This document shows, piece by piece, positions 10,310 to 52,098 of a DNA stretch of 64,000 nucleotides. Position 1 is the first letter of the stretch. Every line of letters begins with the position of its first letter. Source of the DNA: an uncultured Solirubrobacterales bacterium (GTDB lineage Bacteria > Actinomycetota > Thermoleophilia > Solirubrobacterales > Solirubrobacteraceae). Both the position numbers and the translations under genes were made by a program. Under the pieces are notes generated by a model that searched no databases, was not told the origin of the DNA, and saw only the letters and a list, made by a program, of their open reading frames with translations. The stretch lies in NCBI GenBank assembly GCA_963794845.1, contig CAWCFD010000002.1, positions 890,960 to 954,959 of the forward strand, read 5' to 3'.

Positions 10310-10431
10310 CTCGCGCCAGTTTCCTCTGCGATCGCCCTTTGCCGAGTTCGCATTCAACTGCAGGCGCGTACCGCCATCGCCACTCAGGCCCGCCCCCAAC
10401 TACGCCCAAAAGCCCTCCCAAGACCGACCGT

Positions 10432-10573: not shown

Positions 10574-10587
10574 GGAAAACGGCTCAG

Positions 10588-10679
10588 GAAAGCCAAGAAT
10601 CCGGGCGCTGGCAAAAGGCGCGACTTTTCGGCCGGTGGGATTTCAAGACCGGTGCATTCAACCGCTCTGCCACCCTTCC
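10588..10679 (-). pseudogene. truncated tRNA-Ser(UGA)-like gene (intact 5' half only)
   Basis: The minus strand reads GGAAGGG TG GCA GAGCGGTTGAA TGC A CCGGT CTTGAAA, position-for-position like the 5' half of the genuine tRNA-Ser at 27367. After the loop the return strand is offset by 4 nt, and no GTTCGAATC T-arm or matching 3' acceptor strand follows. Confidence 0.45.
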
Positions 10680-10700
10680 GTGTGATCCACAAGGCTAGTC

Positions 10701-10834: not shown

Positions 10835-10863
10835 TTGACAGTTGCGCATGGACCTGCTATGAA
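10835..10863 (+). promoter_or_regulatory. sigma70/SigA-type promoter of cassette copy 1
   Basis: TTGACA (10835-10840), a 17-nt spacer, then TATGAA (10858-10863). An equivalent TTGACA-N17-TATAAA sits at 41836-41864 in copy 2. Confidence 0.55.
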
Positions 10864-10869
10864 TAGACA

Positions 10870-11111
10870 GTCGCCGTCTGCGGGTGCAGATGGGGGCAAG
10901 AACATAAGACTGGGTTTGGGTCGATCCTCGTGGTCGACGGCAAGCGCTTTGGACGGGACCGTGGAGAGGGACCGGGTCAGAACAGAGAGGGAGTTGTAGT
11001 TCGCGTGGTTTCATTGGGGAATAGCGCAGTTGAGAGGTCGTGCGCGCCTGGCGGGTCCTTTATAGGACGTGTCAGCGTCGCTGACACGTCTCTCTCTCTC
11101 TCTCTCTCTCT
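10870..11111 (+). ncRNA. conserved structured non-coding domain (candidate sRNA or riboswitch-like leader), copy 1
   Basis: ~240 nt downstream of the promoter share long identical blocks with 41870..42110: CATAAGACTGG, GAGAGGGACC, GAGAGGGAG, TGTAGTTCGCGTGGTTTC, TTGGGGAATAGCGCAGTTGAGAG, GGCGGGTCCTTTATAGGACG. Stop codons and indels exclude a shared ORF. The domain ends in a palindrome plus CU tract. Confidence 0.5.
11089..11111 (+). repeat. (TC)11T dinucleotide tract
   Basis: Hand-counted 23 nt, the same length as the tract at 42088..42110. Confidence 0.9.
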
Positions 11112-11486
11112 GCGACTCAAGCGCTAGGCCCCTCCGTCCGGCCTTTCGGCCGGCCGGGATCCCCGAAGGGGGATATGGGGAGGGGCATGCCCTCCTCCGT
11201 CCGGCCCTAACGGGCCGTCCGGGCTCCCCCGAAGGGGGTAAGGGGAAGGCTGGGCTCCTCTGCGATCCTCGCCGCCGCGTAAGCCGGTCGGCGTCCTGCC
11301 CCCGTAGGGGAGGGGGGCTCTCTTGTCCTCTTAAGACGCGCGCGCAAGGCGCGCTGTCTGCCTTTCACGATCGTGGGACGGTCGCTGGCGACCCGGCCTC
11401 CGTTCTGCCTGCGCGGGCTTTGCCCCTGGGCGCCATCTCCCTACCGGGCGTCCAGGGGTCCGCGCGATCCGGGGGGGCATGGTGAG
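11112..11486 (+). promoter_or_regulatory. long GC-hairpin-rich 5' leader upstream of the regulator gene
   Basis: Tandem modules of two hairpins, for example CCGTCCGGCC-TTTC-GGCCGGCCGG followed by ATCCCC-GAAG-GGGGAT, occur twice, with GCGCGC-GCAAG-GCGCGC further downstream. The last ~70 nt (CTGGGCGCCATCTCC..GGGCGTCCAGGGGTCCG) are conserved with copy 2. Confidence 0.45.
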
Positions 11487-12515: not shown

Positions 12516-12674
12516 GCCGCCGCCCACGCATCCTCGCTCCCACCGGCCGGGACGCCACACCAAAGCTTGTGTCTCACTGTGAAGTAGCAAGTAAACCTAA
12601 ATCAATCTCATTCTTACATCAATCTGTATCTGTGGACCCACGCGCTAGGCGCGCTTTCAGGAGGGGATGGCTCG

Positions 12675-16535: not shown

Positions 16536-19500
16536 GCGGCGTGTTGGAGAAGACGAACGACAGGCTGCTTGTTCGTGTTGGGCCGGCGCTTGTAGCAGTG
16601 CTGGTGGCGTGGTTGATTGGGACCGGGGTGGCGCGTGCGGAACAACCGTCGCCGTGGTGGGGCTTGACGTCGAGTGCGGCGCCGACTCATATCCAGCCGG
16701 GTGGTGCTCAAAGTGAGGTACAGGAAGCGAGCGGCGCCGTTGGCGGGGAAATCGAAGGTGAACCGGTGCTGTTGTTTGAACTGTCGGTCGGAAGTGGTCC
16801 GGTGTTGGGGTCCTTCGCGGTCGAACCGTTCTTGTCGGCGAATCCCTTGGGTCCCCTATACGAAGCGATTTTTGGGCTGAGTCCGGCGACCGATGAAAAC
16901 TTGCAGAAAGCGCTCGAATCCAGTCAGGCATACGGTCCGGGCGGCGTGAGCGTGACGGGCGGTCCGATCGGGACCGCGCCGATAACGATCACGGCGAGGG
17001 GTGGTGCTGCCGACGCGCCGCTGCCTGCGGTCAAAATAGTCCCGCTCATGGGCGAAGCGCAGACGAAAGTCCTCACGCCGGGTCGAGGTGACGGCACGAT
17101 CGTCTTGACGGCGCAGAATCTCGGCGATGCGGAAGCCAACGGTGGAGCTGATCCGATCGTCCTCACCGACCTGCTTCCCGCAGGGTGGCGTCCGGCCAGC
17201 TTTGTCGAAGCGGGTTATTGGCCACAGGTGGGGCTTTGGGGGGAGGAACTGCTCGTGCCGACCGAATGTCACAGCACCCCGGTGGGGCCGCGCCTGTCGT
17301 TGAGCTGCTCGTACGCCGCGCACCTGCCTGCCGGCGAGCTCTTGGAAGAGCGGGTCGCGGTAACCGACGCGGGCGCGACATCGGGTGCGATCAACGAAGC
17401 GAGCGTCTCAGGCGGCGGCGCGGCGACCGTGAAGAGGGCGAACCATCCGGTATTGATCGGTGGCGAAACGCCGTTCGGTATCGAAAACTACGAGATGACG
17501 GCTGAAGAACCGGGGGGAGCCCAGGATACGCAGGCGGGGTCGCACCCGTTCCAGTTGACGACGACGTTCACGTTGAATCAGAACGGCGAACGCGATCCGG
17601 CGGGCGCGGCGAACAAGGATCTGCGCTTCAACCTGCCGCCGGGGCTGATCGGCAACCCGACACCGTTCGCGCGGTGCACGACGCAACAGTTCCAAGAAAA
17701 CAAATGTCCGATCGGCTCGATCGTAGGGTATGGGAGCACCACATTTATCGGGCGTGGCTACGTCGCTCCCCAGAATACCGATAACGCGGTCTACAACATG
17801 GTTCCGAACGTCGGCGAGCCCGCGCGCTTCGCGTTCTACGCGTTCACCAACCCGGTGTACCTGGACACGTCGGTGCGTACCGGCAGCGATTATGGCGTGA
17901 CGGTGAGTACGGCCAACATCACCGAGAGCGTTGGGTTCATGGCGAGCAGGGTGACGTTCTGGGGCGTGCCGGGTGATCCGCGTCATGATGCGAAGCGCGG
18001 TGGCCCGTCTCCCGAAGCCGCCCATCCCGCGCCGCTGCTCTCGCTGCCGACCTCCTGCACCGGCCCGATGCAGAGCAGCATGGAAGCCGACTCGTGGACG
18101 CAGCCCGGAGTTTTCCTCTCCTCTGAAGCGAATGAACCGATGGCGGAGTTGGATGGCTGTAACCATCTGCCGTTCAACCCCGAAATCAGCGTCGCGCCCG
18201 ATGTGTCCTCCGCGAGCACGCCGTCGGGTTTGACGGTCGGGGTGCGCATCCCCCAGGCCGCGGCGCTGAACCCGACGGGCTTGGCGGAGTCGACGTTGAA
18301 GGATACAACGGTCACATTGCCCGAAGGCGTCGCGGTGAACTCTGGTGGCGCCGATGGCCTGGAAGCGTGCTCTGAGGGCCAGATCGGGTATCTGCAGGGG
18401 GAAAGCACGCCTGAAAATCTGCGCTTCACACCGGAAGAGGGCGAACCGTTCTGTCCCGACGCGTCGAAGGTCGGCACGGTCGAAATCGAAACGCCGCTGC
18501 TGCCGAACGCATTGAAGGGCGCGGTGTATCTGGGCACGCCCGCGCCGTTCGGGGAAGCGGGGATGAACCCGTTCGGGTCGCTGCTCGCGATGTACATCGT
18601 CGCGCACGACCCCGTATCCGGGGTGCTGCTCAAGCTCCCCGGCCAGGTCACGCTCGACCCGAACACGGGCCGGCTGGTCGCGACGTTCGATCACACGCCA
18701 CCTTTGCCGTTTGAAAACCTGCGCATGCACTTCTTCGGTGGTGCGCGCGCACCGTTGTCGACGCCGGCGAAGTGCGGGTCTTATGAAACACAAGCGTCGT
18801 TCGTACCGTGGACGGGGGAAGCGTCCGCGAACGTCGGCTCTACGTTCCGGGTCGACTCGGGTCCGAGTGGCGGTCCGTGCGAGAGCCCGTTGCCGTTCAG
18901 CCCGGCGTTGACGGCGGGCACGACGAGCGTGCAGGCGGGCGGGTTCAGCCCGTTCACGATGACGATGAGCCGCCCCGATGGCAGCCAGACGCTCAGCTCG
19001 ATCGCGCTGCGCATGCCCGACGGGCTCTCGGGGGAGCTCTCCAAAGTCGCGCTATGCTCCGAAGCTCAGGCCAACGAAGGGACCTGCGGTCCGGAAAGCC
19101 AGATCGGCGAATCGACCGTCAGCGTCGGCGTGGGCGGCAACCCGTTCACGGTGACGGGCGGCAAGGTGTTCATCACCGGCCCCTACCACGGAGCGCCGTT
19201 CGGCCTGTCGATACTCACCCCGGCGAAGGCCGGGCCGTTCGATCTCGGCCACGTCGTGGTGAGGGCGAAGATCGAAGTGGATCCGGTTACGGCGGCACTC
19301 ACGATCACGAGCAATCCCCCGGGCACGCAGTACTCGATCCCGACGATCCTGCACGGCATTCCATTGGAGATCCAGCACATCAACGTGACCGTCGGACGGC
19401 CCGAATTCACGTTCAACCCAACCGATTGCGAGAAGAGCGCGATCACCGGCACACTGTTCTCGACCGAAAACACAAGCGATCAGCTGTCGGTGCCCTTCCA

Positions 19501-20179
19501 GGTCACCAACTGCGCGGCGCTCGGCTTCAAACCCGGATTCAAGGTCTCCACGTCAGGAAAGACCAGTCGCGCGAACGGAGCGAGCCTGCGCGTCAAGCTC
19601 GTCTATCCCAAAGCGCCGTTCGGGTCGCAGGCGAACATCAAAAGCGTCAAGGTGGACCTCCCCAAGCAGCTGCCCTCGCGTTTGACGACGCTGCAGAAGG
19701 CGTGCACCTCCGCGCAGTTTGAAGCCAACCCGGCTGGATGCCCGCAAGCCTCGATCGTGGGACACGCCACCGCGATCACGCCCCTGATCCCGGTGCCGTT
19801 GACAGGACCGGCGTATTTCGTCAGCTACGGCGGCGCGAAGTTCCCCGAACTGGTGATCGTGCTCCAGGGTTACGGCGTCACGCTCGACCTGCACGGCGAA
19901 ACGTTCATCAGCAAAGCCGGGATCACCTCGAGCACGTTCCACACCGTCCCCGACGCGCCCGTCGGCAGCTTCGAGTTGACGTTGCCTCAGGGTAAATATT
20001 CGGCGCTGGCCGCGAACGGGAACCTCTGCAAGAGCAAACTCGCGATGCCCACAGCGTTCACCGCGCAGAACGGAGCGGTGATCCACCAGTCGACCAAGAT
20101 CAGCGTCACGGGCTGTGCGAAGACCAAGACGGCCAAGAAGAAGGGCAAGAAGGCCGGCAAGCGCCACAAGCACGGGTAG
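16532..20179 (+). CDS. large secreted protein of unknown family with four Cys-pair modules (paralog 1)
   Basis: The ATG overlaps the upstream stop (ATGA 16532-16535), and a signal-like segment LVAVLVAWLIGTGVARA follows. The motif C-x3-Q-(I/F)...C-P-x2-S-x-(V/I)-G...L-x-G-x-(V/A)-Y-(L/F) recurs four times. The tail is lysine-rich: KTKTAKKKGKKAGKRHKHG. Confidence 0.75.
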   Translation: MSGVLEKTNDRLLVRVGPALVAVLVAWLIGTGVARAEQPSPWWGLTSSAAPTHIQPGGAQSEVQEASGAVGGEIEGEPVLLFELSVGSGPVLGSFAVEPFLSANPLGPLYEAIFGLSPATDENLQKALESSQAYGPGGVSVTGGPIGTAPITITARGGAADAPLPAVKIVPLMGEAQTKVLTPGRGDGTIVLTAQNLGDAEANGGADPIVLTDLLPAGWRPASFVEAGYWPQVGLWGEELLVPTECHSTPVGPRLSLSCSYAAHLPAGELLEERVAVTDAGATSGAINEASVSGGGAATVKRANHPVLIGGETPFGIENYEMTAEEPGGAQDTQAGSHPFQLTTTFTLNQNGERDPAGAANKDLRFNLPPGLIGNPTPFARCTTQQFQENKCPIGSIVGYGSTTFIGRGYVAPQNTDNAVYNMVPNVGEPARFAFYAFTNPVYLDTSVRTGSDYGVTVSTANITESVGFMASRVTFWGVPGDPRHDAKRGGPSPEAAHPAPLLSLPTSCTGPMQSSMEADSWTQPGVFLSSEANEPMAELDGCNHLPFNPEISVAPDVSSASTPSGLTVGVRIPQAAALNPTGLAESTLKDTTVTLPEGVAVNSGGADGLEACSEGQIGYLQGESTPENLRFTPEEGEPFCPDASKVGTVEIETPLLPNALKGAVYLGTPAPFGEAGMNPFGSLLAMYIVAHDPVSGVLLKLPGQVTLDPNTGRLVATFDHTPPLPFENLRMHFFGGARAPLSTPAKCGSYETQASFVPWTGEASANVGSTFRVDSGPSGGPCESPLPFSPALTAGTTSVQAGGFSPFTMTMSRPDGSQTLSSIALRMPDGLSGELSKVALCSEAQANEGTCGPESQIGESTVSVGVGGNPFTVTGGKVFITGPYHGAPFGLSILTPAKAGPFDLGHVVVRAKIEVDPVTAALTITSNPPGTQYSIPTILHGIPLEIQHINVTVGRPEFTFNPTDCEKSAITGTLFSTENTSDQLSVPFQVTNCAALGFKPGFKVSTSGKTSRANGASLRVKLVYPKAPFGSQANIKSVKVDLPKQLPSRLTTLQKACTSAQFEANPAGCPQASIVGHATAITPLIPVPLTGPAYFVSYGGAKFPELVIVLQGYGVTLDLHGETFISKAGITSSTFHTVPDAPVGSFELTLPQGKYSALAANGNLCKSKLAMPTAFTAQNGAVIHQSTKISVTGCAKTKTAKKKGKKAGKRHKHG

Positions 20180-24240: not shown

Positions 24241-24348
24241 CTATCTAACGACGCCCCGGTCCCGCCTAGGACTCCTCGGAGTTATGCGGCGGGGCTTTGT
24301 CGTTCCATACACGGCCAGCGCAGACCAGCCCGCCACCGTGGTCAGCGG

Positions 24349-24489
24349 CAAACCCTCAACCAACTTCCCCGTTTTCGCGCCAAATCCGCGCCAGTCCGAG
24401 CGCGGATCGAGCGTTTCAGGCGGTTTCCAGCGGTCCCGCTGCGCATCCCACGCGGAGCGGGCGTCTCGCCGAATCCCGCTCAACCATGC
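24349..24489. repeat. ~140-bp non-coding repeat, copy B (copy A at 10432..10573)
   Basis: Same conserved blocks and same orientation as copy A. Confidence 0.6.
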
Positions 24490-24558
24490 CAAATCTCACC
24501 TATCTCCTGGACCAGCGAGCATAGGAGGATGACATGCCGGCGATCGACCGTGTGCGCA

Positions 24559-41515: not shown

Positions 41516-41625
41516 TACTTGTCCTGTAGGCCGGCCTCACGGCGCAGCTGCGCCTCAAAGTCCTTGGAGTAGGCGCGGCGCTTGTTCTCCGGGAGCGTGA
41601 CGGGCCGATGCCCGGGCTTGGTCAT
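41516..41625 (-). pseudogene. possible truncated HicA-like toxin (36 aa)
   Basis: MTKPGHRPVTLPENKRRAYSKDFEAQLRREAGLQDK lies 10 nt upstream of hicB. It resembles only the C-terminal half of HicA, and an upstream N-terminal-like piece is in another frame. Confidence 0.3.
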
Positions 41626-41835
41626 CTTGACCTGGTGCCAGCCTCCTCGTGCCGGACACCTCCTCCGTCGTCGGCTTCAGCGACGACATGTGGTTCAGCT
41701 CGCGGCCCCGGACGGAACTTCGTCGCGGGGCCTCGACCCGCGTTTCGCGCTGCGCCGCTCCACGCTCGAAAGCCCCGGCGCCGGCGGGTTCGTGGCGCCT
41801 CGCGCGCGGCTTCTTAAAGATTCTCGCTCAGGTAC

Positions 41836-41864
41836 TTGACACGAGCAGCGTGGTGGTGTATAAA
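41836..41864 (+). promoter_or_regulatory. sigma70/SigA-type promoter of cassette copy 2
   Basis: TTGACA (41836-41841), a 17-nt spacer, then TATAAA (41859-41864). Confidence 0.55.
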
Positions 41865-41869
41865 GACCC

Positions 41870-42110
41870 CATGCCTCGATCCGAAAGGGATCGGGGAAGA
41901 CATAAGACTGGTTTGGGCCGGCCCTGTGGCTAGCCGCAAACGTTTTAGACGGGGAACCTTGGGAGAGGGACCAAGTCGCAACTGAGAGGGAGCTGTAGTT
42001 CGCGTGGTTTCTTTGGGGAATAGCGCAGTTGAGAGTCGTTGTGCGCGTGGCGGGTCCTTTATAGGACGCGTCAGCGGCGCTGACGCGTCTCTCTCTCTCT
42101 CTCTCTCTCT
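41870..42110 (+). ncRNA. conserved structured non-coding domain, copy 2
   Basis: Homologous to 10870..11111 (same blocks). It ends in the palindrome ACGCGTCAGCG-G-CGCTGACGCGT (42066-42088) and the (TC)11T tract. Confidence 0.5.
42088..42110 (+). repeat. (TC)11T dinucleotide tract
   Basis: Hand-counted 23 nt, identical in length to 11089..11111. Confidence 0.9.
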
Positions 42111-42521
42111 GGCCGCCTCAGCCTTCACGGCTTAGGCCGCTCCGCTCCGGCCGCGTCTCGCGGCCGCTTCACCCCGAAGGGGGTGGGGGCATGAGCTGTT
42201 CTTCTCGCGCTCACGCGTCTGCGTGTTGCGCGCACTTGTCGTACCCACGGCCTCAGGCCCCCCTCCGTCCGGCAAGCCGGACGGGATCCCCCCAAGGGGG
42301 GAGATTGAGTGGGTCTCCGGCCTGCAGCCGGACGGGTTCCCCCCTCGGGGGGAGTTTCTCTTTCAAAGTGTCGTACCCACGCGGGATGGTCGCACTAGAC
42401 CCTGCCTCTGTTCTGCTGGACGGGCAACCCCTGGGCGCCATCTCCACGAGGGCGCCTGCGCTCTTGGGCGTCCAGGGGTCCGTCCTACCCATTGTGTGCG
42501 GGTGTGGGAGGAGCCGGTGAG
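42111..42521 (+). promoter_or_regulatory. GC-hairpin-rich 5' leader, copy 2
   Basis: Three double-hairpin modules: CGGCCGCG-TCT-CGCGGCCG + CACCCC-GAAG-GGGGTG; CCGTCCGG-CAAG-CCGGACGG + TCCCCCC-AA-GGGGGGA; TCCGGC-CTGCA-GCCGGA + TCCCCCC-TC-GGGGGGA. TGTCGTACCCACG occurs twice. Confidence 0.45.
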
Positions 42522-43619
42522 ATGGCCGGTGGTAAACGAGCGTCACGGTCTGCTCACGCCGGTACAGGTGACCGGATCGGTCATGGCGCGCGTATCGCGC
42601 AGGCGTATAACGGCGCCGTGCGTGAGCAGCTCGCTGATCTTCAGCGCGCGCGGATCCTCAGCGCGACGTTCGACGTCGTGGCGCAACGGGGGGCGGGGAG
42701 CGTGACCGTCGCTCACGTCGTGGAGCGCTCGGGTGTGAGCCGGCGCACGTTCTACGAGAACTTCGATGATCGTGACGACTGTCTGCTCGCCTCCTTCGAG
42801 CGCGCAGTGACGCTCGCCTCGCAACGGGTCATCCCGGCGTATGAGTCCGAGAAGGGTTGGCGGGAGCGAATCGGGGCCGGCCTGGTCGCGCTGCTCGCCT
42901 TCTGCAATGAGCAGCCGAGCGTTGCTCGGATGCTCGTGTGCGAGTCACTCACAAGCGGCGAGAGAGTCGCCCAGCGCCGGACGGAAATCCTGGCGCGCCT
43001 CACACGGATCGTCGATCAGGGCCGCACCCTTACGGGCACACCCAAAGGGCGCCCGGCAGGCAACTCGGGTATGGCCACGAACGTCTCCCCGCTCGCGGCG
43101 GAGGGGACCGTCGGTGGCGTGCTCGCGGTCATCCAGGCACGGCTGACAGCCTGTCCCCGTGTGGGGGAAGCGAAGCGTGAGCCTCTCATCGTCCTGACTA
43201 ACGAGCTGATGAGCATGATCGTCCTTCCGTACCTCGGTGCTGCAGCAGCGAGGCGCGAGCTCGAGCGTCCGCTGCCCACCTCGGTGAGCGCACCGCGCGA
43301 GGACGCACTCATCTCAGACCCCTTCAAAGCCGCCGGCATGCGCCTCACCTACAGGACGGTGCGGGTATTGATGGCCATCGCCCAGCACCCGGATGGGTCA
43401 AACCGTGTGATCGGTGAGACGGCCGGGATCACAGACCAGGGCCAGATATCGAAGCTGCTCGGTCGCTTGGAGCGGATCGGCCTCGTGTCGAACACGGGGA
43501 TCCACCCCGGTAAGGGCGCCCCGAACTCATGGACCCTCACAGAGGAGGGCCAGCGGATCGCGCAGAACATCCGCGCCAACACCGAAGGCAGCCAAGGCCA
43601 CGGAGCCAGCGAGCGATGA
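42522..43619 (+). CDS. TetR-N / MarR-like-C fusion regulator, paralog 2
   Basis: Colinear with 11487..12515. Shared stretches include TVAHVVERSGVSRRTFYE, AEGTVGGVLAVIQARL, TNELMSMIV, GMRLTYRTVRVL and GQISKLLGRL. Confidence 0.7.
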   Translation: MAGGKRASRSAHAGTGDRIGHGARIAQAYNGAVREQLADLQRARILSATFDVVAQRGAGSVTVAHVVERSGVSRRTFYENFDDRDDCLLASFERAVTLASQRVIPAYESEKGWRERIGAGLVALLAFCNEQPSVARMLVCESLTSGERVAQRRTEILARLTRIVDQGRTLTGTPKGRPAGNSGMATNVSPLAAEGTVGGVLAVIQARLTACPRVGEAKREPLIVLTNELMSMIVLPYLGAAAARRELERPLPTSVSAPREDALISDPFKAAGMRLTYRTVRVLMAIAQHPDGSNRVIGETAGITDQGQISKLLGRLERIGLVSNTGIHPGKGAPNSWTLTEEGQRIAQNIRANTEGSQGHGASER

Positions 43620-43940
43620 GCCACCACGCACGCATCCTCGCCGCCCTGGCCGGCGCCGAACCACAAGCTTGTAATCAAAAAGGAAGCAAGCAAGTAAAGG
43701 CTCTCTCACTGAGTCCGTTGCCCTTGATCTCAATAGCAGAGCGTTTCGCTCCTAGAAATGCAATTGGGATGTTCAAACAATGCACAGGCGACTTTTGGGA
43801 GTAACAAAGGTATGCAGTTCAGAAGAGAGACAAAGCTGAGGGTTCTTTGGCAGGTTGTGTTGGCGGAGAGGTGCTCTTCGCGGCGGGCCATGCCAGTTCG
43901 GAGCCGGGTATTGACACGTAGGCAGAGAGGGGATGGCTTG

Positions 43941-45040
43941 ATGGGTTCTCGCAGGCTGGCATTGACGGTCACGATCGCGCTGTGCATATGGGGGTGGGGA
44001 CTCGCCTGGGCAGGCTCCGCGTTGGCGGCTAGCGCTCCGACGATCGAACTCGAGGCTGTGTCCGACGTGGAATATGCGGGCGCCACGCTGAGTGCGACGA
44101 TCAAGCCAAACGAAGCGGCGACTACATATCGGTTCGAATACGGCAGCAGTGTCTCCTACGGCACGAGCCTGCCCTCCTCGGAAGCCCAAGTCGGGTCGGG
44201 TACGGAAGCTGTGACAGTCAAACAGCTGGCGTTGGGACTCACACCGGGCAGCACCTATCACTATCGGGTCGTAGCGGTCAGCGCCGAAGGCACGACGTTT
44301 GGACCGGACAAGGTGTTTAGGACGTTCCCTGAGCCCGTCGCTGAAACAGAAACATGTAGCAACGCGGGGATCCGCGCTAAGCAGTTCGCCTCTTATCTTC
44401 CCGACTGCCGTGCTTACGAGATGGTTTCGCCGCTCGATAAGAACGGCGGGAACATCTCAGCGGTCGAGAGCATGACTCAATCTTCGATCACCGGCGACGC
44501 GGTCAAGTACGTTTCTCCCGCTGCGTTCGGCGACACGGTGGGAATGCAGGCCAGCGGAAACGAATACGTGGCTCAGCGCGGGCCGGAAGGCTGGATCAGC
44601 CACTCGATAACTCCGCATCAGCCGGCAGAACCCTATCCTTTCGTCACACCCGAGTACACACTGATCTCCGAAGATCTGTCCAAGGGCGTGTACTACGCGA
44701 TATCGCCGCTTGCCGGGACCGATCCCAACGTCGCCGGCGTGCACAACCTCTACCTGCGCAAGGATCTGCTGTCGGCGCCTCCCGGCAGCTACGAACTTTT
44801 GAGTGACTCCATAGAACCTCTGCCGGCCAGGGAACAGCTGGGCTTCAAACACTCCATAGCGGTCGCTGCCGCGTCCAAGGATCTGACTCACATCGTGTTC
44901 GAGTCGTTGGACGATCTGACGCCGGAAGCGAAAGGCCTGCCGGCAGGCGCAAAGACTTACGAATGGCACAACGGTACGGTGCACCTGGTGGGCATACTGC
45001 CCGATGGGCAGCCGGCCGAAAACTCGGTCGCAGGTCAGGG
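43941..45040 (+). pseudogene. N-terminal fragment of Fn3/beta-propeller secreted protein (paralog of 12675..16535, lacks the NHL part), interrupted by IS
   Basis: Signal peptide LALTVTIALCIWGWGLAWAGSALAASA, one TTYRFEYG..YHYRVVA unit, then propeller-type sequence. The frame is broken at 45040/45041 by the IS. Confidence 0.7.
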
Positions 45041-46613
45041 CTCGACTTTCGCGGTTTAGGCAGCCGCGAGTGCTGATGAGAGCTGGGGTTCTCTGATTTG
45101 TTGATGCGTGGTCATCGGGTGTGCTTGTGCATGAAACTCCTGCCGGATGAGCTCGCGGCGTAGCGCTGCGAGCATGTCGGCGTAGCTGACGGTGGCCTTC
45201 TGGCGGTACCACGGAGCCCGGCGGCGGCGCTCGATCAGGTCGGCCTGCGGGTCGCCGCAGAGCTGGTACCAGAGGATCGTGATCGTGATCGTCAGGAAAC
45301 CGAACGGCACGGTGCGCTCCACGGCTCCCTTGACTCTGTTGCGGGCGTCGCCGACGCCATGGGCCTTGGCCTCTTGGTGGACGGTCTCGATCACCCAGCG
45401 CCCGTCGTAGCGTTCGATGGTCTGTACGGCGGTGGCGGTGGTGTCGGTTGATGCCATCGCGATGTCGAAGCTGTCGGTCTTTGTGCTGTTGGGGCTGCGG
45501 ACGAGGATCACCTTGATCGGCCGCGTGTGAAACGGCTTGTACCACAGGCACACAAACTCGTGGATGAGGGCGGTGCGGCTCCGCCCGTCGCGTCCGGTGA
45601 GCGTGACGGGCGTGAAGGTCGCGGCTTTGGCGATCTCGGCGAGGCTCCCCATCCTCTTGCCCTTCAGCGGCGTGCGGCCGTGCTGGTGTGGCCGGCGTGC
45701 CAGGGGGAGCTCGTGGATCGCGGCGTTTGCGCGCATCCTGGTTGTCAGGCTGACGTGATCGGGCAGGCTCCGCCAGGCCCTGGAGGCGTAGGCGCCGTCC
45801 ATCACCAGCTCGACCTGGCGGCCGGGGAAGCGCTTGATGACCAGGTCGATGAGCGTTCGTCCGAGCTCGGGTTGGGAGGGCCGGCCGGGGTGCTCATCGT
45901 CCTTCGGTCGGAAGAGCCGGCAGAGGACCGGCAGGCCGATCGTCCGCCCGCCGGTGCATGGCAGCGCCACGACGAGCACGACCGTAACGAAGCAGTTGCC
46001 GAAGCGGGTGCGCCTGCCCGAGCCCTCCGGTTGCGCGCCGTCGTGCAGGTAGTGCGCCCCCCACACGCGCTTTCCCGTGCGCCCGAAGAGGGTGTCGTCC
46101 ACGGCCAGAGAGATCGGGCCGTCGGCTCCGATCAGCAGCGAGACCAGGAGGTCCAGCAGCCGCAGCCCGAGCTCATCCGGGCACCACCGGCGATAGGCGA
46201 AGAACGCGTGCGCGCGGCTGTGATGCCAGACGCCCGCCAGGCCCGCTGCCTGCAGCATCCCCGTGACCGTGTTCTCGCGGATGCGCGCGATGAAGCCGAC
46301 CGTGAGCATGCAGAACGTCCGGTACGTGGGTGCCGTGAAGCACGGCGCAAGCAGGGACAGCAAGCCGGCGAGCGAACTGGGAACCTGAGGCATGGCGGCG
46401 ACCCCCCGATGGGCAGGCCGCGGGAACGCTCACTACGCCCCGCGGCCGATGGACTTTGTCGCCCACCGGATTCGGGGTCGCCGCCAGCCCTCCTGCGGTC
46501 GCGCTCAACCCACACCAACCCCGCCGCTCAGCCAGCCAGACGCACCCGCCGCGCGCCGACCACACCAGTCATCACTACACCACGCTCAGACCTCGAAAAA
46601 CCCGAAACTCGAG
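45041..46613 (-). mobile_element. IS4/IS701-like insertion sequence (1573 bp) with imperfect 17-bp terminal IRs and 6-bp TSD
   Basis: Left end CTCGACTTTCGCGGTTT versus reverse complement of right end CTCGAGTTTCGGGTTTT. TCAGGG is duplicated at 45035-45040 and 46614-46619. Confidence 0.8.
45056..46393 (-). CDS. DDE transposase (IS701/IS4-like)
   Basis: 445-aa ORF filling the element: LAVDDTLFGRTGKRVWGA, ELVMDGAYAS, RWVIETVHQEAKAHGVGDARNR (D, D, E regions). Confidence 0.8.
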   Translation of the reverse strand: MPQVPSSLAGLLSLLAPCFTAPTYRTFCMLTVGFIARIRENTVTGMLQAAGLAGVWHHSRAHAFFAYRRWCPDELGLRLLDLLVSLLIGADGPISLAVDDTLFGRTGKRVWGAHYLHDGAQPEGSGRRTRFGNCFVTVVLVVALPCTGGRTIGLPVLCRLFRPKDDEHPGRPSQPELGRTLIDLVIKRFPGRQVELVMDGAYASRAWRSLPDHVSLTTRMRANAAIHELPLARRPHQHGRTPLKGKRMGSLAEIAKAATFTPVTLTGRDGRSRTALIHEFVCLWYKPFHTRPIKVILVRSPNSTKTDSFDIAMASTDTTATAVQTIERYDGRWVIETVHQEAKAHGVGDARNRVKGAVERTVPFGFLTITITILWYQLCGDPQADLIERRRRAPWYRQKATVSYADMLAALRRELIRQEFHAQAHPMTTHQQIREPQLSSALAAA

Positions 46614-46619
46614 TCAGGG

Positions 46620-48054
46620 GGCGGGTGTTGAATTCTCTCAAAATGCGATCTCCACCGCCGATGCAGTCAATATTCCTGGCACGGTCTCAGACGACGGGTC
46701 ACGAATAGTTTTTGCGACTCCTCCTTACGCGATAACCGCCGAAGGCATCGACAAAGAAGGAATGGGCGGCCAGCTTTACATGCGTGTGAACGGATCGGAA
46801 ACGATCTATTTGAATGAAAGCGAGCGCTCCTCGCCGGATCCCAACGGTACTAAGCCTGCGTTCTTCTGGGCTGCCACTTCGGACGACTCCAAGCTCTTCT
46901 TCACGAGTTCCGAGATGCTGACCGAAGATGCGCCCGAAACGGGCGTGAAGTACTACATGTACGATGTAAACGCCCCTGCGAAAAAACACCTCACGCTGCT
47001 GGTGTCGGGTCCGCCAGGCGAACAGAACGGCAAAATCAACGGTATCAGCGCCGACGGCAGTTACGTCTATTTCACGTCATCCGCGCCGCTTCGCCCACAA
47101 GACCAGATTGAAGTCGAAGGCAGGTCGGGTCACTTCCTGGGGTATGTCTATGTACTGCACCAGGGAGAACTCCGCTTCATTACTACGCACACTTGGCAGG
47201 AAAATGAACTGTGGGAAGAAGGGGGTCTCGAATATGGTCACGGCCTGCGAATCTCGGCCGACGGCAAGACGGTGCTGTTCACAAATGAAGATCCGGCGAC
47301 CGCCGAGCAGGCAGGCTATGAAAACGACCCGTATCCAAAGAAGTTGAAAGACACTGAGGTTTACCTCTATCGTTACGACTCGAACAAGATAACCTGCGTC
47401 TCGTGCGACCCCAGCGGCGCGTATCCGGTCAGTTTCGCCGGGTTCTCCGGTGGTTTCAGCGTCGACGCCAATGCATTCTCGATTCTGGTGAGTCCAACCC
47501 ATTATCGCGCGCATGCGCTCAGCGACGACGGCCGCTATGTATTCTTCGATACCGCAGACGCTCTGACTCCGCAGGACGTCAACAAACAGCGCGATGTCTA
47601 TGAGTACGATATTGCGACCGGCAAGATCCATCTGATCTCAAGCGGCACCTGTAACTGCGGATCGTTCTTCGTGGACGCGTCGCCCGACGGGCGCAACGTA
47701 TTCTTCACGACCTATCAAAAACTGGTGCGGTCGGACATCGACGACAGCGCGGACCTGTACGACGCGCGCATCGAAGGGGGAATACCGGCCCAGAATGTGC
47801 CGCCAAGCGTGCCCTGCATCGGAGACGACTGCCAGGCTCCTGCCAGTTCCGCTCCACCGCTCTCGGTGGCAGCGTCATCGACGTTCTTTGGCGCCGGCAA
47901 TCCCCTGACACCTGTCGTGAAAGCGAAGCCCAAACCAAAGGCCAAGCACACCAGGCACGGGAAAGCTAAGCGCAAGCATAAGTCGAGGCAGGGGCGCAAG
48001 AGTCGCAGAGCCGCCAAGGCGCGCCACACCACACTACGTCGAGCCGCGCGTTAG
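46620..48054 (+). pseudogene. C-terminal fragment of the IS-disrupted beta-propeller protein
   Basis: Removing 45041-46619 joins ...VAGQG|AGVEFSQNAIS... in frame. PD40-like blades (DGSRIVF, DDSKLFF, DGSYVYF, DGKTVLF, DGRYVFF, DGRNVFF) and a polybasic tail KAKPKPKAKHTRHGKAKRKHKSRQGRKSRRAAKARH. Confidence 0.75.
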
Positions 48055-48069
48055 GGAGAGGACGAACCA

Positions 48070-51000
48070 ATGTATCTAAAGACTATGAAGATGGACAGGC
48101 TCAGGACTGTGCTCGCGCTCGCAGTAGCGGTGGTCGTGACTGTCGCGATGGTCCTAGGCGCAGACTCAGCTAGCGCCAATTTCGGTATCGAAGGCTTCGA
48201 TCAGCAGATCACTGCGGGTCCCGCCGGTGGAGTATTCACGCAAGCAGGTGGACACCCATATGAAATCATCACCGAAATAGAGCTCAACCATCATGAACAG
48301 ACGTTGTTCGGGACCAAAATTCAGATGCCCGACGCGGACGCCAGAGACATCGTCACGAAGCTCCCGCCGGGACTGTTCGGAAACCCGACCGGGATCGAGC
48401 AGTGCACGATCGAACAGTTGTCCGGCGCCAATGAGCCTCTGCACACATCTCACTACGCAGAATGCCCCATCGCATCCCAGGTCGGCTATATCGAACTGCA
48501 TATCCCGCTCGCCGAACTGTTTGGCCGCCCCGCTGCCGTGGCGCAGCTCTACAACATCGTCCCCGCGTTCGACCAGCCGGCGGCGTTTGGGTTCGATGTG
48601 GCGGGACAGTCGATCATATTGACGGGAAATGTGCGCAACGGTGGCGACTTTGGCATCAACGTCATCTCGCCGAAAATTCCGGACGCCCTGCCGATCACCG
48701 GCATCAAGGTCGTCTTTTGGGGTGTGCCGGGAGACCCGAGGCACGACTTCCAGAGATGCCAATATTCTCTTGCCCACGAAGAAGGCGAAACCGGTCCGCC
48801 TCGTTGCGGAAGTGCTACAGAAGAACATCCACTTGCCGGGCCCAGTAAAGACCCGGAAGCGCCGAGAGCTTTCTTGACGCTCCCGGTTTCCTGTACCGCC
48901 ATCGGTTCGGGTGTTCAGACGACGCTACAGACGGATGCCTGGTCTGCTCCCGGTGTGTTTGCCGAACAAAGCATGTTCAGCCACGAACCCCCCGGCTATC
49001 CGCTCGCGCCCAGCGAATGGGGCGCGCAGATCGGTACGACCGGTTGCCCGATCGTGCCCTTCAAACCGGCGGTCGACATCGAGCCGAGCACCCAACAGGC
49101 CGATACGCCGGCGGGGTTGAACATAGATTTCTCGCTGCCCCAAGAAGGGCTGTTGGCTCCCGAAGGAATCGCGACCTCGGATGTTCGCAAGACAGTCGTA
49201 ACGCTGCCCGCAGGCGTTTCGGTCTCGCCGTCGGCCGCCGATGGCTTGGGTGCATGCACGCTCGCGCAGATCGGCTTGGGCAGCGGCGAAACACCGTCAT
49301 GCCCCGACTCCGCGAAGATGGGCACAGTAGAGATAGACACGCCGTTGCTCTCCGAACCGTTGCATGGCGCGATCTATCTGGCCAAGCAGAACGAAAACCC
49401 CTTCCATTCCTTGATCGCGCTGTATCTCGTGGCGGAAGGTCATGGTGTGGTCTTGAAGCTGGCCGGCCAGGTCAATCTTGACCCGGTGACCGGTCAGCTA
49501 CAGAGCACGTTCGACAACAGCCCCGAGTTGCCATTCAACGATCTGAAGATCGACTTCAAGGGCGGACCCAGGGCGCCGCTTGTCACGCCCCATGAATGTG
49601 GCACCTACACCAGCACCGCGACCATGACCCCGTGGTCGGGCAACGCTCCGGCGACTGTCTCGAGCTCCTTTGAGATCACCTCCGGTCCTGGCGGAAAGCC
49701 GTGTCCTTCGCCGCGACAGTTCGCGCCTGGCTTCACGATGGGTACCACCAGCATCCAGGCTGGAGGCTTTAGTCCCCTGACGATGACGATGAGCCGCCCC
49801 GACGGGGACGAGCAGCTTGGAGGGGTGTCACTCAAGACTCCACCCGGCCTGCTGGGAACACTCTCTACGGTCGCGTTGTGTGGGGAACCACGGGCCGCCC
49901 AGGGCACTTGCGGTCCGGAATCCCAAATAGGCACTGTCGTGGCAGCAGCGGGCGCCGGGGCGAACCCGTTCTACGTAAACGGCGGCAAGGTGTTCATCAC
50001 GCAGTCCTACCACGGAGCGCCGTTCGGTCTGTCCGTGGTCGTCCCTGCCGTCGCGGGCCCGTTCGATCTCGGCACTGTCGTCGTCAGAGGAACGATTGCG
50101 GTGGATCCACATACTGCTGCACTTACGATTACCACGGACCCTCTACCGACGATCCTTGATGGCATACCTCTGGACATTAGAGTGGTAAACGTAAATATTG
50201 ACAGGCCTGGCTTCGTCTTCAACTCGACCAACTGTGAACCACAGGCGATCACCGGGACACTGAGTGGTGGACTAGGGGATACGGAGAGCGTTGGGGCTCA
50301 CTATCAGGTGACGAACTGCGCGAGTCTCGGGTTCAAGCCGGTGTTCAAAGTGGCGACGAACGGGCACACTTCGAGAGCCAACGGTGCGAGCCTGCATGTG
50401 TCTCTTCTCTATCCGAAAGCGCCGTTCGGTACGCAGGCCAACATTGCGAAAGTGCATATTGAACTTCCTAAGGCTCTTCCTTCTCGTTTGAGCACCCTCA
50501 ACCATGCTTGCTTGGATTCTGTTTTCAATCAGAATCCTGCCAGTTGTCCTTCTCAATCAAGAGTTGGATTTGCTAAGGCTGTGACTCCAGTACTTCCTGT
50601 TCCTCTAGAAGGTCCAGCTTATTTTGTGAGTCATGGAGGACAAAAGTTTCCTGAATTGATAGTTGTTCTTCAAGGTTATGGAGTAACTGTCGACCTTCAG
50701 GGCGAAACGTTCATCAGCAAGGCTGGTATAACCTCCTCAACCTTCAAGACCGTGCCGGACGTACCGGTAGGGTCCTTCGAACTGACGCTACCGGAGGGCC
50801 CGTTCTCAGCCCTGGCGGCCAACACCGATCTCTGTACGGCGAACCTCGTGATGCCGAACACCTTCGACGCGCAGAACGGGGCTCAGATCAAGCAGAACAC
50901 CCCGATCGAAGTGCAGGGCTGCCAGTACTCGCTGCGGATCGTGCACCGGGCCGTCAAGAGGCGCACGTTGACGGTGAAGGTGTCGGTGCCTGCCGCCGGG

Positions 51001-51207
51001 AGGCTCGTCGCTAGCGGGAAGGGCGTCTCGAAGGCCGCCAAGACGGCCAAGGGCCGCTCTACGCTCACCCTGACCCTCGAAGAGGGTCACGCCGGCAAGC
51101 TGCGCACGAAGGTTCAGCTGCGCTTCACGCCGAGTGGCGCCGCCGGCAAGCAGCGCGGCAAGCAGGCGAAGATCCTGCGCAAGAGCCTCACCGTCACGTT
51201 CGGATAA
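48070..51207 (+). CDS. large secreted four-Cys-pair-module protein, paralog 2 (extra C-terminal beta-sandwich-like domain)
   Basis: RBS GGGAGAGGA, signal LALAVAVVVTVAMVLGADSASA. It is colinear with residues ~340-1215 of paralog 1, for example TQAGGHPYE, GTCGPESQIG, GAPFGLS, GPAYFVSHGG, GETFISKAGITSSTF. Confidence 0.8.
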   Translation: MYLKTMKMDRLRTVLALAVAVVVTVAMVLGADSASANFGIEGFDQQITAGPAGGVFTQAGGHPYEIITEIELNHHEQTLFGTKIQMPDADARDIVTKLPPGLFGNPTGIEQCTIEQLSGANEPLHTSHYAECPIASQVGYIELHIPLAELFGRPAAVAQLYNIVPAFDQPAAFGFDVAGQSIILTGNVRNGGDFGINVISPKIPDALPITGIKVVFWGVPGDPRHDFQRCQYSLAHEEGETGPPRCGSATEEHPLAGPSKDPEAPRAFLTLPVSCTAIGSGVQTTLQTDAWSAPGVFAEQSMFSHEPPGYPLAPSEWGAQIGTTGCPIVPFKPAVDIEPSTQQADTPAGLNIDFSLPQEGLLAPEGIATSDVRKTVVTLPAGVSVSPSAADGLGACTLAQIGLGSGETPSCPDSAKMGTVEIDTPLLSEPLHGAIYLAKQNENPFHSLIALYLVAEGHGVVLKLAGQVNLDPVTGQLQSTFDNSPELPFNDLKIDFKGGPRAPLVTPHECGTYTSTATMTPWSGNAPATVSSSFEITSGPGGKPCPSPRQFAPGFTMGTTSIQAGGFSPLTMTMSRPDGDEQLGGVSLKTPPGLLGTLSTVALCGEPRAAQGTCGPESQIGTVVAAAGAGANPFYVNGGKVFITQSYHGAPFGLSVVVPAVAGPFDLGTVVVRGTIAVDPHTAALTITTDPLPTILDGIPLDIRVVNVNIDRPGFVFNSTNCEPQAITGTLSGGLGDTESVGAHYQVTNCASLGFKPVFKVATNGHTSRANGASLHVSLLYPKAPFGTQANIAKVHIELPKALPSRLSTLNHACLDSVFNQNPASCPSQSRVGFAKAVTPVLPVPLEGPAYFVSHGGQKFPELIVVLQGYGVTVDLQGETFISKAGITSSTFKTVPDVPVGSFELTLPEGPFSALAANTDLCTANLVMPNTFDAQNGAQIKQNTPIEVQGCQYSLRIVHRAVKRRTLTVKVSVPAAGRLVASGKGVSKAAKTAKGRSTLTLTLEEGHAGKLRTKVQLRFTPSGAAGKQRGKQAKILRKSLTVTFG

Positions 51208-51370
51208 GCGTTTTTCTCCCCCCGAGGGTGCTCCCGGGCTGAAGCAGAGGCTCGGGGGCGTCTCGGCGCGGGGCCGCCGATCGGAAGGCTGAGACGGGTC
51301 GCTGAGGCCCGCTGAGGGAGGCCGTGACGGAATACCGTCGCCCACGTTTGCAAAGCTGGGACGCATGTCC
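51205..51370. repeat. diverged direct repeat flanking the VapBC cassette, left copy (right copy 52096..52226)
   Basis: Both copies start at a stop codon followed by GCGTTT. Both contain GCGTCTCGGCG, CGCTGAGG and CCGTC.CCA..GTTTGCAAA.CTGGG, and both end with ATGTCC. Confidence 0.6.
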
Positions 51371-51463
51371 GTTCGCGAACGAGATCAGCCGGTGGCTTGC
51401 GCTGCACGCGAGGAGCCCGACGCCCCGGATCGTGCCCCACGCGGCGGGTGCTACGCTGCGCGT

Positions 51464-51679
51464 ATGCCCACGACGAAGAAGCCCACCGCCGCCGCCAAGC
51501 CCGCGTCCGGTTCCAACGGCTATTCGACTGCGACCCGCCCTGGACGGATCCGCTCCAAGGCTCGCCGCGAAGCGATCGAGGCGCTGATCGAGCGGACAAC
51601 GAAGGGCCCAGGACCGACCCCCGAGATGGAAGCCCGGTTGAAGGACGACGCTTGGGGCAAGCGCCTCGTCGATCCGTGA
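51464..51679 (+). CDS. vapB: antitoxin of VapBC-type module
   Basis: MPTTKKPTAAAKPASG...RSKARREAIEALIERTTKG. Its stop overlaps the vapC GTG (GTGA at 51676-51679). Confidence 0.55.
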   Translation: MPTTKKPTAAAKPASGSNGYSTATRPGRIRSKARREAIEALIERTTKGPGPTPEMEARLKDDAWGKRLVDP

Positions 51680-52098
51680 GCCTGCCGGCCGACCGGATCT
51701 ACCTGTTCGACACGTCGGTCTGGCTTCGCACAAAGCATCCGCTGATCGCCTCCGACTGGGAAGCGGCGCTGCGGAACGACCAGCTGGCCGTCTCGCCGAT
51801 CGTCGCCTTCGAGGCTTTCTACGACGCCCAGAGCCAGGCTGACTTCGAGCATCTCGAAAGGCAACTCGACGCTCTGCGGCAGGCGCCGCTGACGCAGGGG
51901 ATCGTCCGTGACGCCCGCCGTGCGCTGCACGACCTCTCGGCGAAGGCGAACCATCGGCTGCCGTTCCCGGACGCGCTGCTCGCCGCGACGGCCGCGCACA
52001 AGAACATGACCGTGCTGCACTACGACGGGCATTTCGACACGCTCAGCAAAGTGCTCGGCTTCGAGAGTCGCTGGATCGCCGCGCCAGGATCGCTCTAG
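51676..52098 (+). CDS. vapC: PIN-domain toxin (VapC-like)
   Basis: IYLFDTSVWLR...SPIVAFEAFY...FPDALLAATAAHKNMTVLHYDGHFD. Confidence 0.8.
   Translation: MSLPADRIYLFDTSVWLRTKHPLIASDWEAALRNDQLAVSPIVAFEAFYDAQSQADFEHLERQLDALRQAPLTQGIVRDARRALHDLSAKANHRLPFPDALLAATAAHKNMTVLHYDGHFDTLSKVLGFESRWIAAPGSL

Follow-up and report, generated by a model that had tools for sequence, protein, structure and literature searches.

A structured 5′ leader with an invariant hairpin and (UC)n tract in regulator and secreted-protein cassettes of Solirubrobacterales: a candidate transcription-attenuation switch

INTRODUCTION

The primary binding sites of Rho prefer 5′-YC dimers (Y, pyrimidine), and riboswitches and proteins that mask or unmask Rho utilization (rut) sites are known, including that of ribM in the actinobacterium Corynebacterium (PMC12360218). 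An artificial rut site of 15 rUrC repeats terminates transcription in Escherichia coli (PMC5021804, citing Guerin et al. 1998). In the current study, a natural leader that may work in a related manner is described from a 64 000-nucleotide (nt) stretch of DNA of an uncultured Solirubrobacterales bacterium (GenBank assembly GCA_963794845.1, contig CAWCFD010000002.1, positions 890,960 to 954,959; the whole stretch is referred to below as the window). The leader is present in two copies, each preceding a gene for a TetR-type regulator with a fused winged helix, and contains a palindromic hairpin joined to a perfect (UC)n tract. Comparison with its relatives indicates that it is very probably a functional cis-acting structured leader. 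The preferred reading, to which we give a probability of about 45%, is that it is a transcription-attenuation switch over the cassette, in which purine-rich (GA) blocks hide or release the tract as a site for Rho.

Solirubrobacterales are abundant soil Actinomycetota, nearly all of them uncultured, and to our knowledge nothing is known of their gene regulation. High-GC bacteria are largely without canonical terminators. An artificial poly(rUrC) Rho-dependent terminator was reportedly described by Guerin et al. in 1998 (NAR 26:4895).

METHODS

A scan for relatives of the regulator, with one genome per GTDB species, gave at least 585, of which 80 listed loci, all from Solirubrobacterales metagenome-assembled genomes (MAGs), were used; a pattern scan of metagenomes contributed at least 120 additional loci. 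The 200 fetched loci total 1.59 Mb, and every host is an uncultured MAG. The instance set comprises at least about 170 leaders from Solirubrobacterales MAGs and soil metagenomes.

RNA structure was tested on 137 aligned sequences against slid-partner controls and 500 shuffles, using five measures, and a covariance model (CM), R1, of 222 positions and 37 base pairs was built. Gene context was counted for the 132 instances that are followed by 600 nt or more of sequence, and promoter conservation was taken from 43 aligned family members. The promoter scan used a strict sigma-70 rule, which requires T at position 6 of the −10 hexamer; the terminator scan required a hairpin and at least 5 T in 8. 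For the region after the tract, the first MAFFT alignment resolved hairpin H3 alone, a more homogeneous subset gave H2 and H3, and H1 was read by eye. Folding of the block before the ATG was carried out with RNAalifold on a small sample, the 12 members that fit a strict pattern.

RESULTS AND DISCUSSION

Two diverged copies of one non-coding element

An earlier interpretation of the window, made without database searches (the sequence-only reading), had proposed that the leader at copy 2 is a second, independently diverged copy of the element at copy 1 (Table 1). This is borne out, and the element recurs in at least about 170 loci. The two copies are 82% identical in the core domain and 94% identical in the hairpin and tract. 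Identity is 71% in the coding sequence (60% at the third positions of identical four-fold codons), 59% in the block before the ATG, 53% in the region after the tract and 52% in unrelated upstream DNA. Similarity in the nucleotide alignment is therefore centred on the non-coding core and not confined to the promoter and start region, and the core, together with the hairpin and tract, is better conserved than the adjacent protein gene. The non-coding leader sequence is under purifying selection.

The individual parts named in the sequence-only reading are all present, with one correction to the hairpin modules. Both hexamers of the proposed TTGACA-N17-TATAAA promoter are present with the 17-nt spacer, and the −10 hexamer was left unflagged by the strict sigma-70 rule. 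The shared conserved blocks include one of 42 nt (41994-42035 in copy 2, 10995-11036 in copy 1) with a single variable position, for which there are two matches in the window compared with 0.00 expected. The dyads, GACGCGTCAGCG-G-CGCTGACGCGTC in copy 2 and GACGTGTCAGCG-T-CGCTGACACGTC in copy 1, covary, in that a C to T change in the left arm is mirrored by a G to A change in the right arm. Both copies carry a CU tract of equal length, (TC)11T (23 nt), and these are the sole such tracts in the window on either strand. An ORF with a TetR_N domain and a MarR_2-like part, the latter below the Pfam cutoff in copy 2, directly follows each leader. The claim of three double-hairpin modules stands only in part: the three hairpins H1–H3 (42111-42185) are kept family-wide, while the double hairpins of the CCTCCGTCCGGC type are optional insertions.

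The entire cassette, comprising leader, regulator and large secreted proteins, has been duplicated and has diverged. Among the 132 instances counted, the first homologous downstream gene encodes the regulator in 72 and a big secreted protein in 54; six have neither. The element is always co-oriented with this gene, with a spacer of approximately 45–480 nt between tract and start codon, and leaders that head a big gene usually have one or two regulator genes immediately before them. In these 54 of the 132 cases the secreted-protein gene follows directly and the regulator is encoded elsewhere, so that the element is to be taken as leader to the cassette as a whole and not just to the regulator. 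The view of the leader as a part of the regulator's cassette thus holds in that it recurs family-wide, and needs correction in that it belongs to more than the regulator. That the non-coding part is a selected component of the cassette agrees with the covariation of its helices (see below) and with its constant orientation and position upstream of cassette genes, the one type of cassette with which it is exclusively associated. About 30 regulator loci are without the RNA element, and the palindrome is absent within ±6 kb of them. In L001, the locus of the closest regulator homologue (82% identity), the upstream region is completely different, which indicates that the leader can be missing from close paralogues.

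Covariation of the leader RNA

The structural model comprises helices P1, P2 and P4, a pseudoknot and the palindromic hairpin, T. In the 137 sequences, 93.3% of its cells are paired, compared with 36–50% when the partners are slid. Compensatory cells, in which both sides have changed, number 130 as opposed to 40.3±5.2 in the shuffles, and none of the 500 shuffles reached any of the five structure measures. The pseudoknot pairs covary (CG77/UA22/UG22 and UA80/CG6/GC6), and T shows the compensatory classes CG117/UA20 and CG135/UA2 over 137 instances. G·U pairs are abundant (e.g. GU95 and UG85); these can form in the RNA of the + strand alone, which identifies it as the strand that folds. For 41870-42200, the single-sequence fold gives a z score of −3.86 and includes all of H1, H2 and H3. 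P1 is GACU/AGUC in copy 2 and GGUC/GGUC in most members, and the 5′-terminal hairpin P0 is kept in position and free in sequence across the family. The motif GGAGAGG is invariant in all 137 sequences; besides the tract, it is the sole single-stranded feature that is invariant in every class. The element thus has, as do riboswitches and other cis-regulatory leaders, a conserved and covarying structured domain of the 5′ untranslated region (UTR) on the sense strand.

With the CM, scores are 216 and 215 bits for the window copies and reach 244 bits in other members. A search of the whole window with Rfam 15 (4227 models) at the gathering threshold returned two tRNAs only, and a scan of 41780-42560 at E≤10 left the core unmatched; sub-threshold matches to whalefall-1 (24.8 and 18.6 bits; cutoff 37) fall on the inserted hairpin modules. 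No report on riboswitches or RNA motifs of Solirubrobacterales or Conexibacter was found in the searchable literature. The leader family is therefore new, as neither Rfam nor the searchable literature contains it, while its kind, a structured cis-regulatory leader or attenuator, is already known.

Two other origins for the conserved sequence were rejected. A coding leader does not fit, in that an ORF of copy 1 (11069-11485) reads the tract as SLSLSL and has no equivalent in copy 2, where the ORF at 42191-42520 begins after the tract; the family alignment is also rich in indels that are not multiples of three. A phage origin was dismissed, as the pattern is absent from 2.9 M viral contigs.

The hairpin and tract as a unit

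In the 80 listed regulator loci and the window there are 51 (TC)≥7 tracts. All are on the regulator strand, and all lie directly behind the palindrome GGACGCGTCAGCGTCGCTGACGCG or a compensated variant, e.g. GATGCTTCAGC...GCTGAAGCATC. Conversely, the palindrome was never found without a tract in the 1.59 Mb; a full tract accompanies 161 of 162 palindromes, and the exception has a tract of 13 nt. The CM recovered a member with merely a 13-nt tract in L031, and truncated variants as well. Tract length in the family is 23 nt in 85 cases, 25 nt in 25, 27 nt in 12, 29 nt in 19, 21 nt in three and 33 nt in one. It is labile: L099:1115-1338 and L148:46-267 have 100% identical cores and tracts of 25 and 23 nt, respectively, and at 85–93% core identity tracts are of unequal length as frequently as in unrelated pairs (63%). 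The difference between L099 and L148 is either genuine microsatellite instability or an assembly error.

Multiple regulator loci and several leader copies are present per genome. Two members, L094:7778-7926 (− strand) and L175:2632-2780 (+ strand), are truncated and lack a segment of approximately 70 nt from P4 to the antiterminator-like hairpin (AT); they retain the 5′ pseudoknotted subdomain, blocks GA1 and GA2, the hairpin and the tract. An isolated 5′ subdomain adjoins a full copy in L158 (4562-4634, − strand).

A proposed attenuation switch

In the proposed mechanism, a near-consensus promoter of the sigma-70 type, presumed strong, would drive a cis-acting 5′ leader of approximately 300 nt. 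In one conformation the (UC)n tract would be concealed by pairing to the GA blocks, giving read-through. In the other, the folded core would retain the GA blocks and leave the tract single-stranded and exposed, as a string of YC dimers on which Rho could load, and Rho would then terminate transcription in the structured, hairpin-rich region past the tract. Attenuation of this type would control the TetR and winged-helix regulator, the giant secreted proteins or both. The signal that drives the switching may be a small molecule, a protein or a physical cue, with Rho as the putative effector.

Several features of the family are consistent with these steps. The tract is the sole window of the leader in which C exceeds G (C/G 1.68, compared with 0.4–0.9 elsewhere); it contains 0% G and approximately 48% C, with YC at every step. 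Canonical terminators, consisting of a hairpin and U tail, are not enriched in the genome region (four found, 7.2 expected). RNAalifold pairs GA1 and GA2 with the entire tract. The three GA blocks are of 10, 9 and 5 nt, with a modal sum of 24, and the modal tract is of 23 nt. G occupies alternate positions of the GA blocks in 98–99% of cases, compared with 89–92% in shuffled runs, and this is the pattern required for pairing with (UC)n through G-C, A-U and G·U pairs only. The fold, the block lengths and the phasing of G are suggestive of pairing between the GA blocks and the tract. Two hairpins may in addition compete, as GGACGCGUCA is common to AT and to the 5′ arm of the palindrome. The family means are −20.0 kcal/mol for T and −17.3 kcal/mol for AT, and the values for copy 2 are −20.6 and −21.5 kcal/mol, respectively. 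When its upstream part is shuffled, AT reaches −11.8 kcal/mol, and the native energy is lower in 96% of sequences. This supports T and AT as mutually exclusive and near-isoenergetic structures.

A number of observations weigh against the proposed switch. AT covaries only weakly, 78% of its cells being paired, and the P4–AT segment is absent from the two truncated members. The tract never varies, which places the GA:CU pairing beyond covariation testing, and its length shows no correlation with that of the GA blocks (rho −0.10, P 0.24). At 23–29 nt, the tract is short in comparison with the 30-nt artificial rut site and the longer natural rut sites, and the hairpins immediately past it are G-rich and stable. 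A tblastn search of the 1.59 Mb of fetched loci with an E. coli Rho sequence gave no match and is uninformative. The gene context, a regulator and secreted beta-propeller genes, points to no ligand. Finally, what is kept in the palindrome is the sequence as well as the pairing, a hint that a protein may recognize it.

A more elaborate form of the switch is also conceivable. The tract is a simple-sequence repeat that is labile above a functional floor, and on that account its length could serve as a tunable rheostat. It is doubtful, however, that the full arrangement applies, a new class of RNA switch in which a pseudoknotted sensor would decide whether the three GA blocks zip up (UC)11-14 or leave it free as a landing pad for Rho, and tract length would be a heritable setting of expression. 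With such a rheostat, the many paralogous cassettes for secreted proteins in Solirubrobacterales would come to differ in expression.

Alternative explanations

The leader could attenuate transcription in riboswitch fashion without Rho, if the invariant 12-bp hairpin and (UC)n formed a non-canonical intrinsic terminator, or a strong site of pausing, for the RNA polymerase of this lineage. The upstream domain would then select terminator or antiterminator, and the GA blocks would have a role in binding a ligand or in tertiary structure and not in sequestering the tract. The near-isoenergetic, mutually exclusive T and AT suit this explanation, as do the riboswitch-like core (a junction closed by P1, with a pseudoknot) and the pyrimidine run that the hairpin abuts in every instance; with canonical U-tail terminators scarce in the genome region, local signals may also differ. 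It is nevertheless rather unlikely. U merely alternates in the tail, which escaped the terminator rule and does not form a canonical intrinsic terminator (the scan of the leader flagged 42337-42353 only, in an inserted module), and the rU/rC:dA/dG hybrid is not weak. A simple tail would need neither 21 nt or more, nor a perfect dinucleotide repeat, nor a length floor, and the alternate-position G of the three purine blocks would be left unexplained. In more than 130 instances the palindrome keeps its sequence where other helices have drifted, which raises instead the idea that a dimeric protein binds it, either as DNA (an operator or roadblock) or as an RNA hairpin, with the RNA fold an accessory. 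The cassette's own TetR and winged-helix regulator is the obvious candidate: it has two putative DNA-binding domains and a complete ligand-binding TetR fold, its gene is almost always nearby, and a perfect 25-bp dyad is of a size typical of a TetR operator. Its recognition helix, VSRRTFY, is invariant and residues of helix 2 differ between palindrome classes, a correlation that is inseparable from shared descent. Against such an operator, the palindrome is missing from the approximately 30 regulator loci without the RNA element and never stands apart from the tract in the 1.59 Mb, which indicates that it travels with the RNA and not with the regulator. It also lies approximately 200 nt downstream of the promoter and not at it, all instances are strand-locked to tract and gene, and the upstream complementarity to its 5′ arm is a feature of RNA. 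Control by a palindrome-binding protein therefore appears unlikely, and as a general operator of the regulator family the palindrome is ruled out: it was never found without the RNA element and does not classify as a TetR operator site.

The downstream genes are very long and of lower GC content than their surroundings, and the leader, constitutively promoted and highly structured, stands directly ahead of big genes in 54 of 132 cases. Processive antitermination or an anti-Rho function, as in HK022 put or EAR, or use of the tract as a Rho decoy, could serve such long operons: the elongation complex would be modified or protected, and transcription carried through to their last gene. We consider this improbable, as there is no similarity to an Rfam family, nothing ties the RNA to RNA polymerase (RNAP), and competing hairpins are better suited to a local switch than to a static RNAP-binding module. 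Even less credence is given to a stand-alone, trans-acting small RNA of approximately 240 nt that would end at the hairpin and tract, the downstream genes having promoters of their own. The strong promoter, the hairpin-plus-pyrimidine 3′ module, the several copies per genome and the purine-rich and CU-rich single strands, which could pair with targets, would all be in keeping with one. A trans-acting RNA would not be expected, however, to lie always co-oriented and 45–480 nt upstream of one of two gene families; conservation, moreover, runs past the tract into H1–H3 and the gene-specific blocks before the start, and no conserved second promoter was seen between tract and start codon. Equally remote is an effect at the level of DNA, with (TC)n·(GA)n as a hypermutable microsatellite (a contingency switch) or as an H-DNA or triplex block and the RNA fold incidental. 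Tract length does drift fast, and the cassettes, which encode surface or secreted proteins, are paralogous and present in several copies. The tract, however, lies approximately 220 nt past the −10 in the transcribed leader, which is not the placement of a simple-sequence-repeat (SSR) contingency locus; as it is outside both ORF and promoter spacer, steps of 2 nt cannot switch frame or promoter geometry. A strong length floor of 21–23 nt, strict strand polarity and covariation of the surrounding 200 nt as RNA also speak against a DNA-level effect. Homopurine·homopyrimidine sequences are reported to block transcription mainly when the non-template strand carries the purines, which is the opposite orientation to that of this tract.

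Cassette genes and other features of the locus

Coordinates are collected in Table 1. As modelled, the regulator has a complete TetR fold, with helix–turn–helix and ligand-binding domain, which places it in the TetR family, and a winged helix fused at its C terminus (H277-E339) that is sub-threshold for MarR_2 (24 bits compared with 27). An AlphaFold2 model has a predicted local distance difference test (pLDDT) value of 76, and Foldseek aligned it with FadR, EthR and DarR at template-modelling (TM) scores of 0.6–0.76 over approximately 200 aa; sequence matches in the PDB cover the N-terminal part only. The family comprises 5492 homologues, and the named ones are from Solirubrobacteraceae. Downstream, the big proteins are of 0.8–1.3 thousand aa each, several in a row. 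GC content of the cassette genes is 0.61–0.65 (12001-20000 and 44001-52000), as opposed to 0.67–0.71 in the flanks. In cassette 2, a DDE_5/DDE_Tnp_1 transposase ORF (45056-46393, − strand) splits the first large secreted-protein gene into pieces at 43758-45059 and 46456-48054, and a VapC-family toxin-like ORF (51397-52098, + strand) lies downstream of the cassette.

Table 1. Coordinates of the leaders, their parts and the cassette genes in the window
Feature	Position	Strand	Remarks
Leader copy 2	41836..42521	+	Upstream of regulator ATG at 42522
−35 hexamer TTGACA	41836..41841	+	TTGAC invariant, last A ≥90% conserved in 43/43 aligned members
−10 hexamer TATAAA	41859..41864	+	17 nt past −35; family consensus TGTGTATAAGAT
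P0, variable 5′-terminal hairpin CCUCGAUCC-GAAAG-GGAUCGGGG	41874..41896	+	In single-sequence fold
Domain 1, pseudoknotted core (~165 nt)	41898..42062	+	Covariation; CM match 216 bits, E=2.8e-59
P1, long-range helix	41906-41913 with 41968-41977	+	Domain 1
P2 hairpin	41917-41934	+	Domain 1
Pseudoknot	P2 loop 41924-41927 with ACGGG 41949-41953	+	Domain 1
Purine block GA1 GGGAGAGGGA	41961-41970	+	Unpaired linker
Purine block GA2 GAGAGGGAG	41984-41992	+	Unpaired linker
P4	42001-42027	+	Domain 1
Purine block GA3 (UU)GAGAG	42029-42035	+	Unpaired linker
AT, antiterminator-like hairpin UGGCGGGUCC-UUUAUA-GGACGCGUCA	42048..42073	+	Fold energies
T, 25-nt perfect palindrome, 12-bp hairpin GACGCGUCAGCG-G-CGCUGACGCGUC	42065..42089	+	Near-invariant in 137 instances
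(UC)11U tract	42088..42110	+	Pattern match, family-wide
H1, two-tier hairpin	42111-42138	+	Position and pairing kept across loci
H2 hairpin	42148-42166	+	Position and pairing kept across loci
H3 hairpin	42170-42185	+	GC<->CG swaps
Insertion, 13-nt direct repeats TGTCGTACCCACG	42237-42249 and 42369-42381	+	Span 42237..42381; repeats bracket a 119-nt segment
Double-hairpin modules, CCTCCGTCCGGC type	42258-42303 and 42314-42354	+	Inside bracketed insertion
Pre-ATG block of regulator-type leaders	42368..42521	+	Common to copy 1 and many regulator loci
Pre-ATG hairpins	42382-42404 and 42428-42478	+	Second with CU-rich apical loop
Shine–Dalgarno (SD) sequence GGGAGGAG	42506-42513	+	In pre-ATG block
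Regulator gene, copy 2	42522..43619	+	Pfam TetR_N 9e-10; MarR_2 4.3e-05, below cutoff
Cassette-2 large secreted-protein genes	43758-45059, 46456-48054, 48070-51207	+	Signal-peptide-like N termini; NHL, fn3-like, PD40
Leader copy 1	10835..11486	+	CM match 10900-11119, 214.8 bits; palindrome 11066-11090; tract 11089-11111
Regulator gene, copy 1	11487-12515	+	TetR_N and MarR_2-like
Cassette-1 paralogous large genes	12675-16535, 16478-20179	+	Paralogy between cassettes

Past H1–H3, the leaders diverge according to the type of gene that follows. In regulator-type leaders, a CCCAC/CUCCC segment of the pre-ATG block can pair with GUGGG of the SD region; leaders of the big-protein type have a different common block, which ends in GAGGAGGGGAUG. 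The 119-nt bracketed segment has the look of sequence inserted or duplicated into the beginning of the pre-ATG block. Within the 200 fetched loci, the 12-mer of the hairpin modules was seen only inside such leaders, 20–250 nt past the tract and once inverted (L130). The second inserted module contains a hairpin with a T-rich tail, TTCCCCCCTCGGGGGGA GTTTCTCTTT, at 42337-42353, between the tract and the regulator start; if functional, it would end leader transcripts ahead of the gene.

Upstream of the promoters, a TGTTCTCAGCAAACA-like inverted repeat lies approximately 15–30 nt before the −35 hexamer in seven loci (L003, L004, L016, L021, L025, L026 and L066). It is a candidate protein operator, and the window copies are without it. 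An ORF of 36 aa, MTKPGHRPVTLPENKRRAYSKDFEAQLRREAGLQDK, is present at ~41517-41627 (− strand), approximately 200 nt upstream of the copy 2 promoter. An intergenic repeat of approximately 150 nt (10429-10575 and 24346-24495; 71-nt core 85% identical) is unrelated to the leader, and one of its copies lies approximately 300 nt upstream of the copy 1 promoter. The sequence at ~10633-10681 (− strand) resembles by eye the first ~40 nt of tRNA-Ser(UGA), broken in the anticodon loop, and may be an integration scar beside cassette 1; the fragment was called neither by ARAGORN nor by Rfam (E≤1).

Comparison with known systems

The leader represents a large (~220–300 nt) pseudoknotted RNA family, absent from Rfam and present in many copies per genome, whose family-specific cassettes combine ligand-sensing regulators with giant secreted proteins. 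In bacterial leaders, we know of no natural counterpart either to a perfect (UC)n repeat joined to a hairpin of invariant sequence or to purine blocks phased for pairing with such a repeat. If the proposed mechanism is correct, this would be the first natural poly(UC) Rho switch and a new coupling of RNA folding to termination in high-GC bacteria, and synthetic attenuators could gain from it a compact part that is easily transferred. Should the step with Rho prove incorrect, the family would still be a well-delimited candidate for an orphan riboswitch or leader, with alignments, a covariance model and clear mutational targets.

The likeness to Rho-dependent riboswitches and attenuators, such as E. 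coli ribB (FMN), Corynebacterium glutamicum ribM and the pgaA leader with CsrA, lies in the structured 5′ leader. In the riboswitches, alternative folds mask or unmask a C-rich, G-poor Rho site, and one documented case is actinobacterial (PMC12360218). The Solirubrobacterales leader, in contrast, has no sequence or structure similarity to them, and its candidate rut site is a perfect dinucleotide repeat of 21–29 nt fused to an invariant hairpin. The artificial poly(rUrC) terminator (PMC5021804) has the identical (UC)n RNA sequence, an array of YC dimers. The Solirubrobacterales element, in comparison, is natural and conserved, has 11–14 repeats and not 15 or more, belongs to a high-GC actinobacterial host, and has its tract within a structured leader that also contains complementary GA blocks.

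Classical terminator/antiterminator platforms of riboswitches and attenuators resemble the leader in its two apparently exclusive hairpins of similar stability, downstream of a conserved, pseudoknotted, sensor-like 5′ UTR domain. The Solirubrobacterales leader differs from these in that no U tract follows the hairpin, the hairpin is kept in sequence, and some truncated members are without the antiterminator. HK022 put and Bacillus EAR are likewise cis-acting structured RNAs that head, or lie within, long operons for extracellular products; no homology to either was detectable with Rfam, and the competing hairpins of the Solirubrobacterales leader are a local design. SSR contingency loci of host-adapted bacteria, finally, also combine a labile microsatellite with adjoining multi-copy genes for surface or secreted proteins. 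Unlike in those loci, the repeat in the Solirubrobacterales element is part of a structured, untranslated leader, with a floor to its length and a strict strand polarity.

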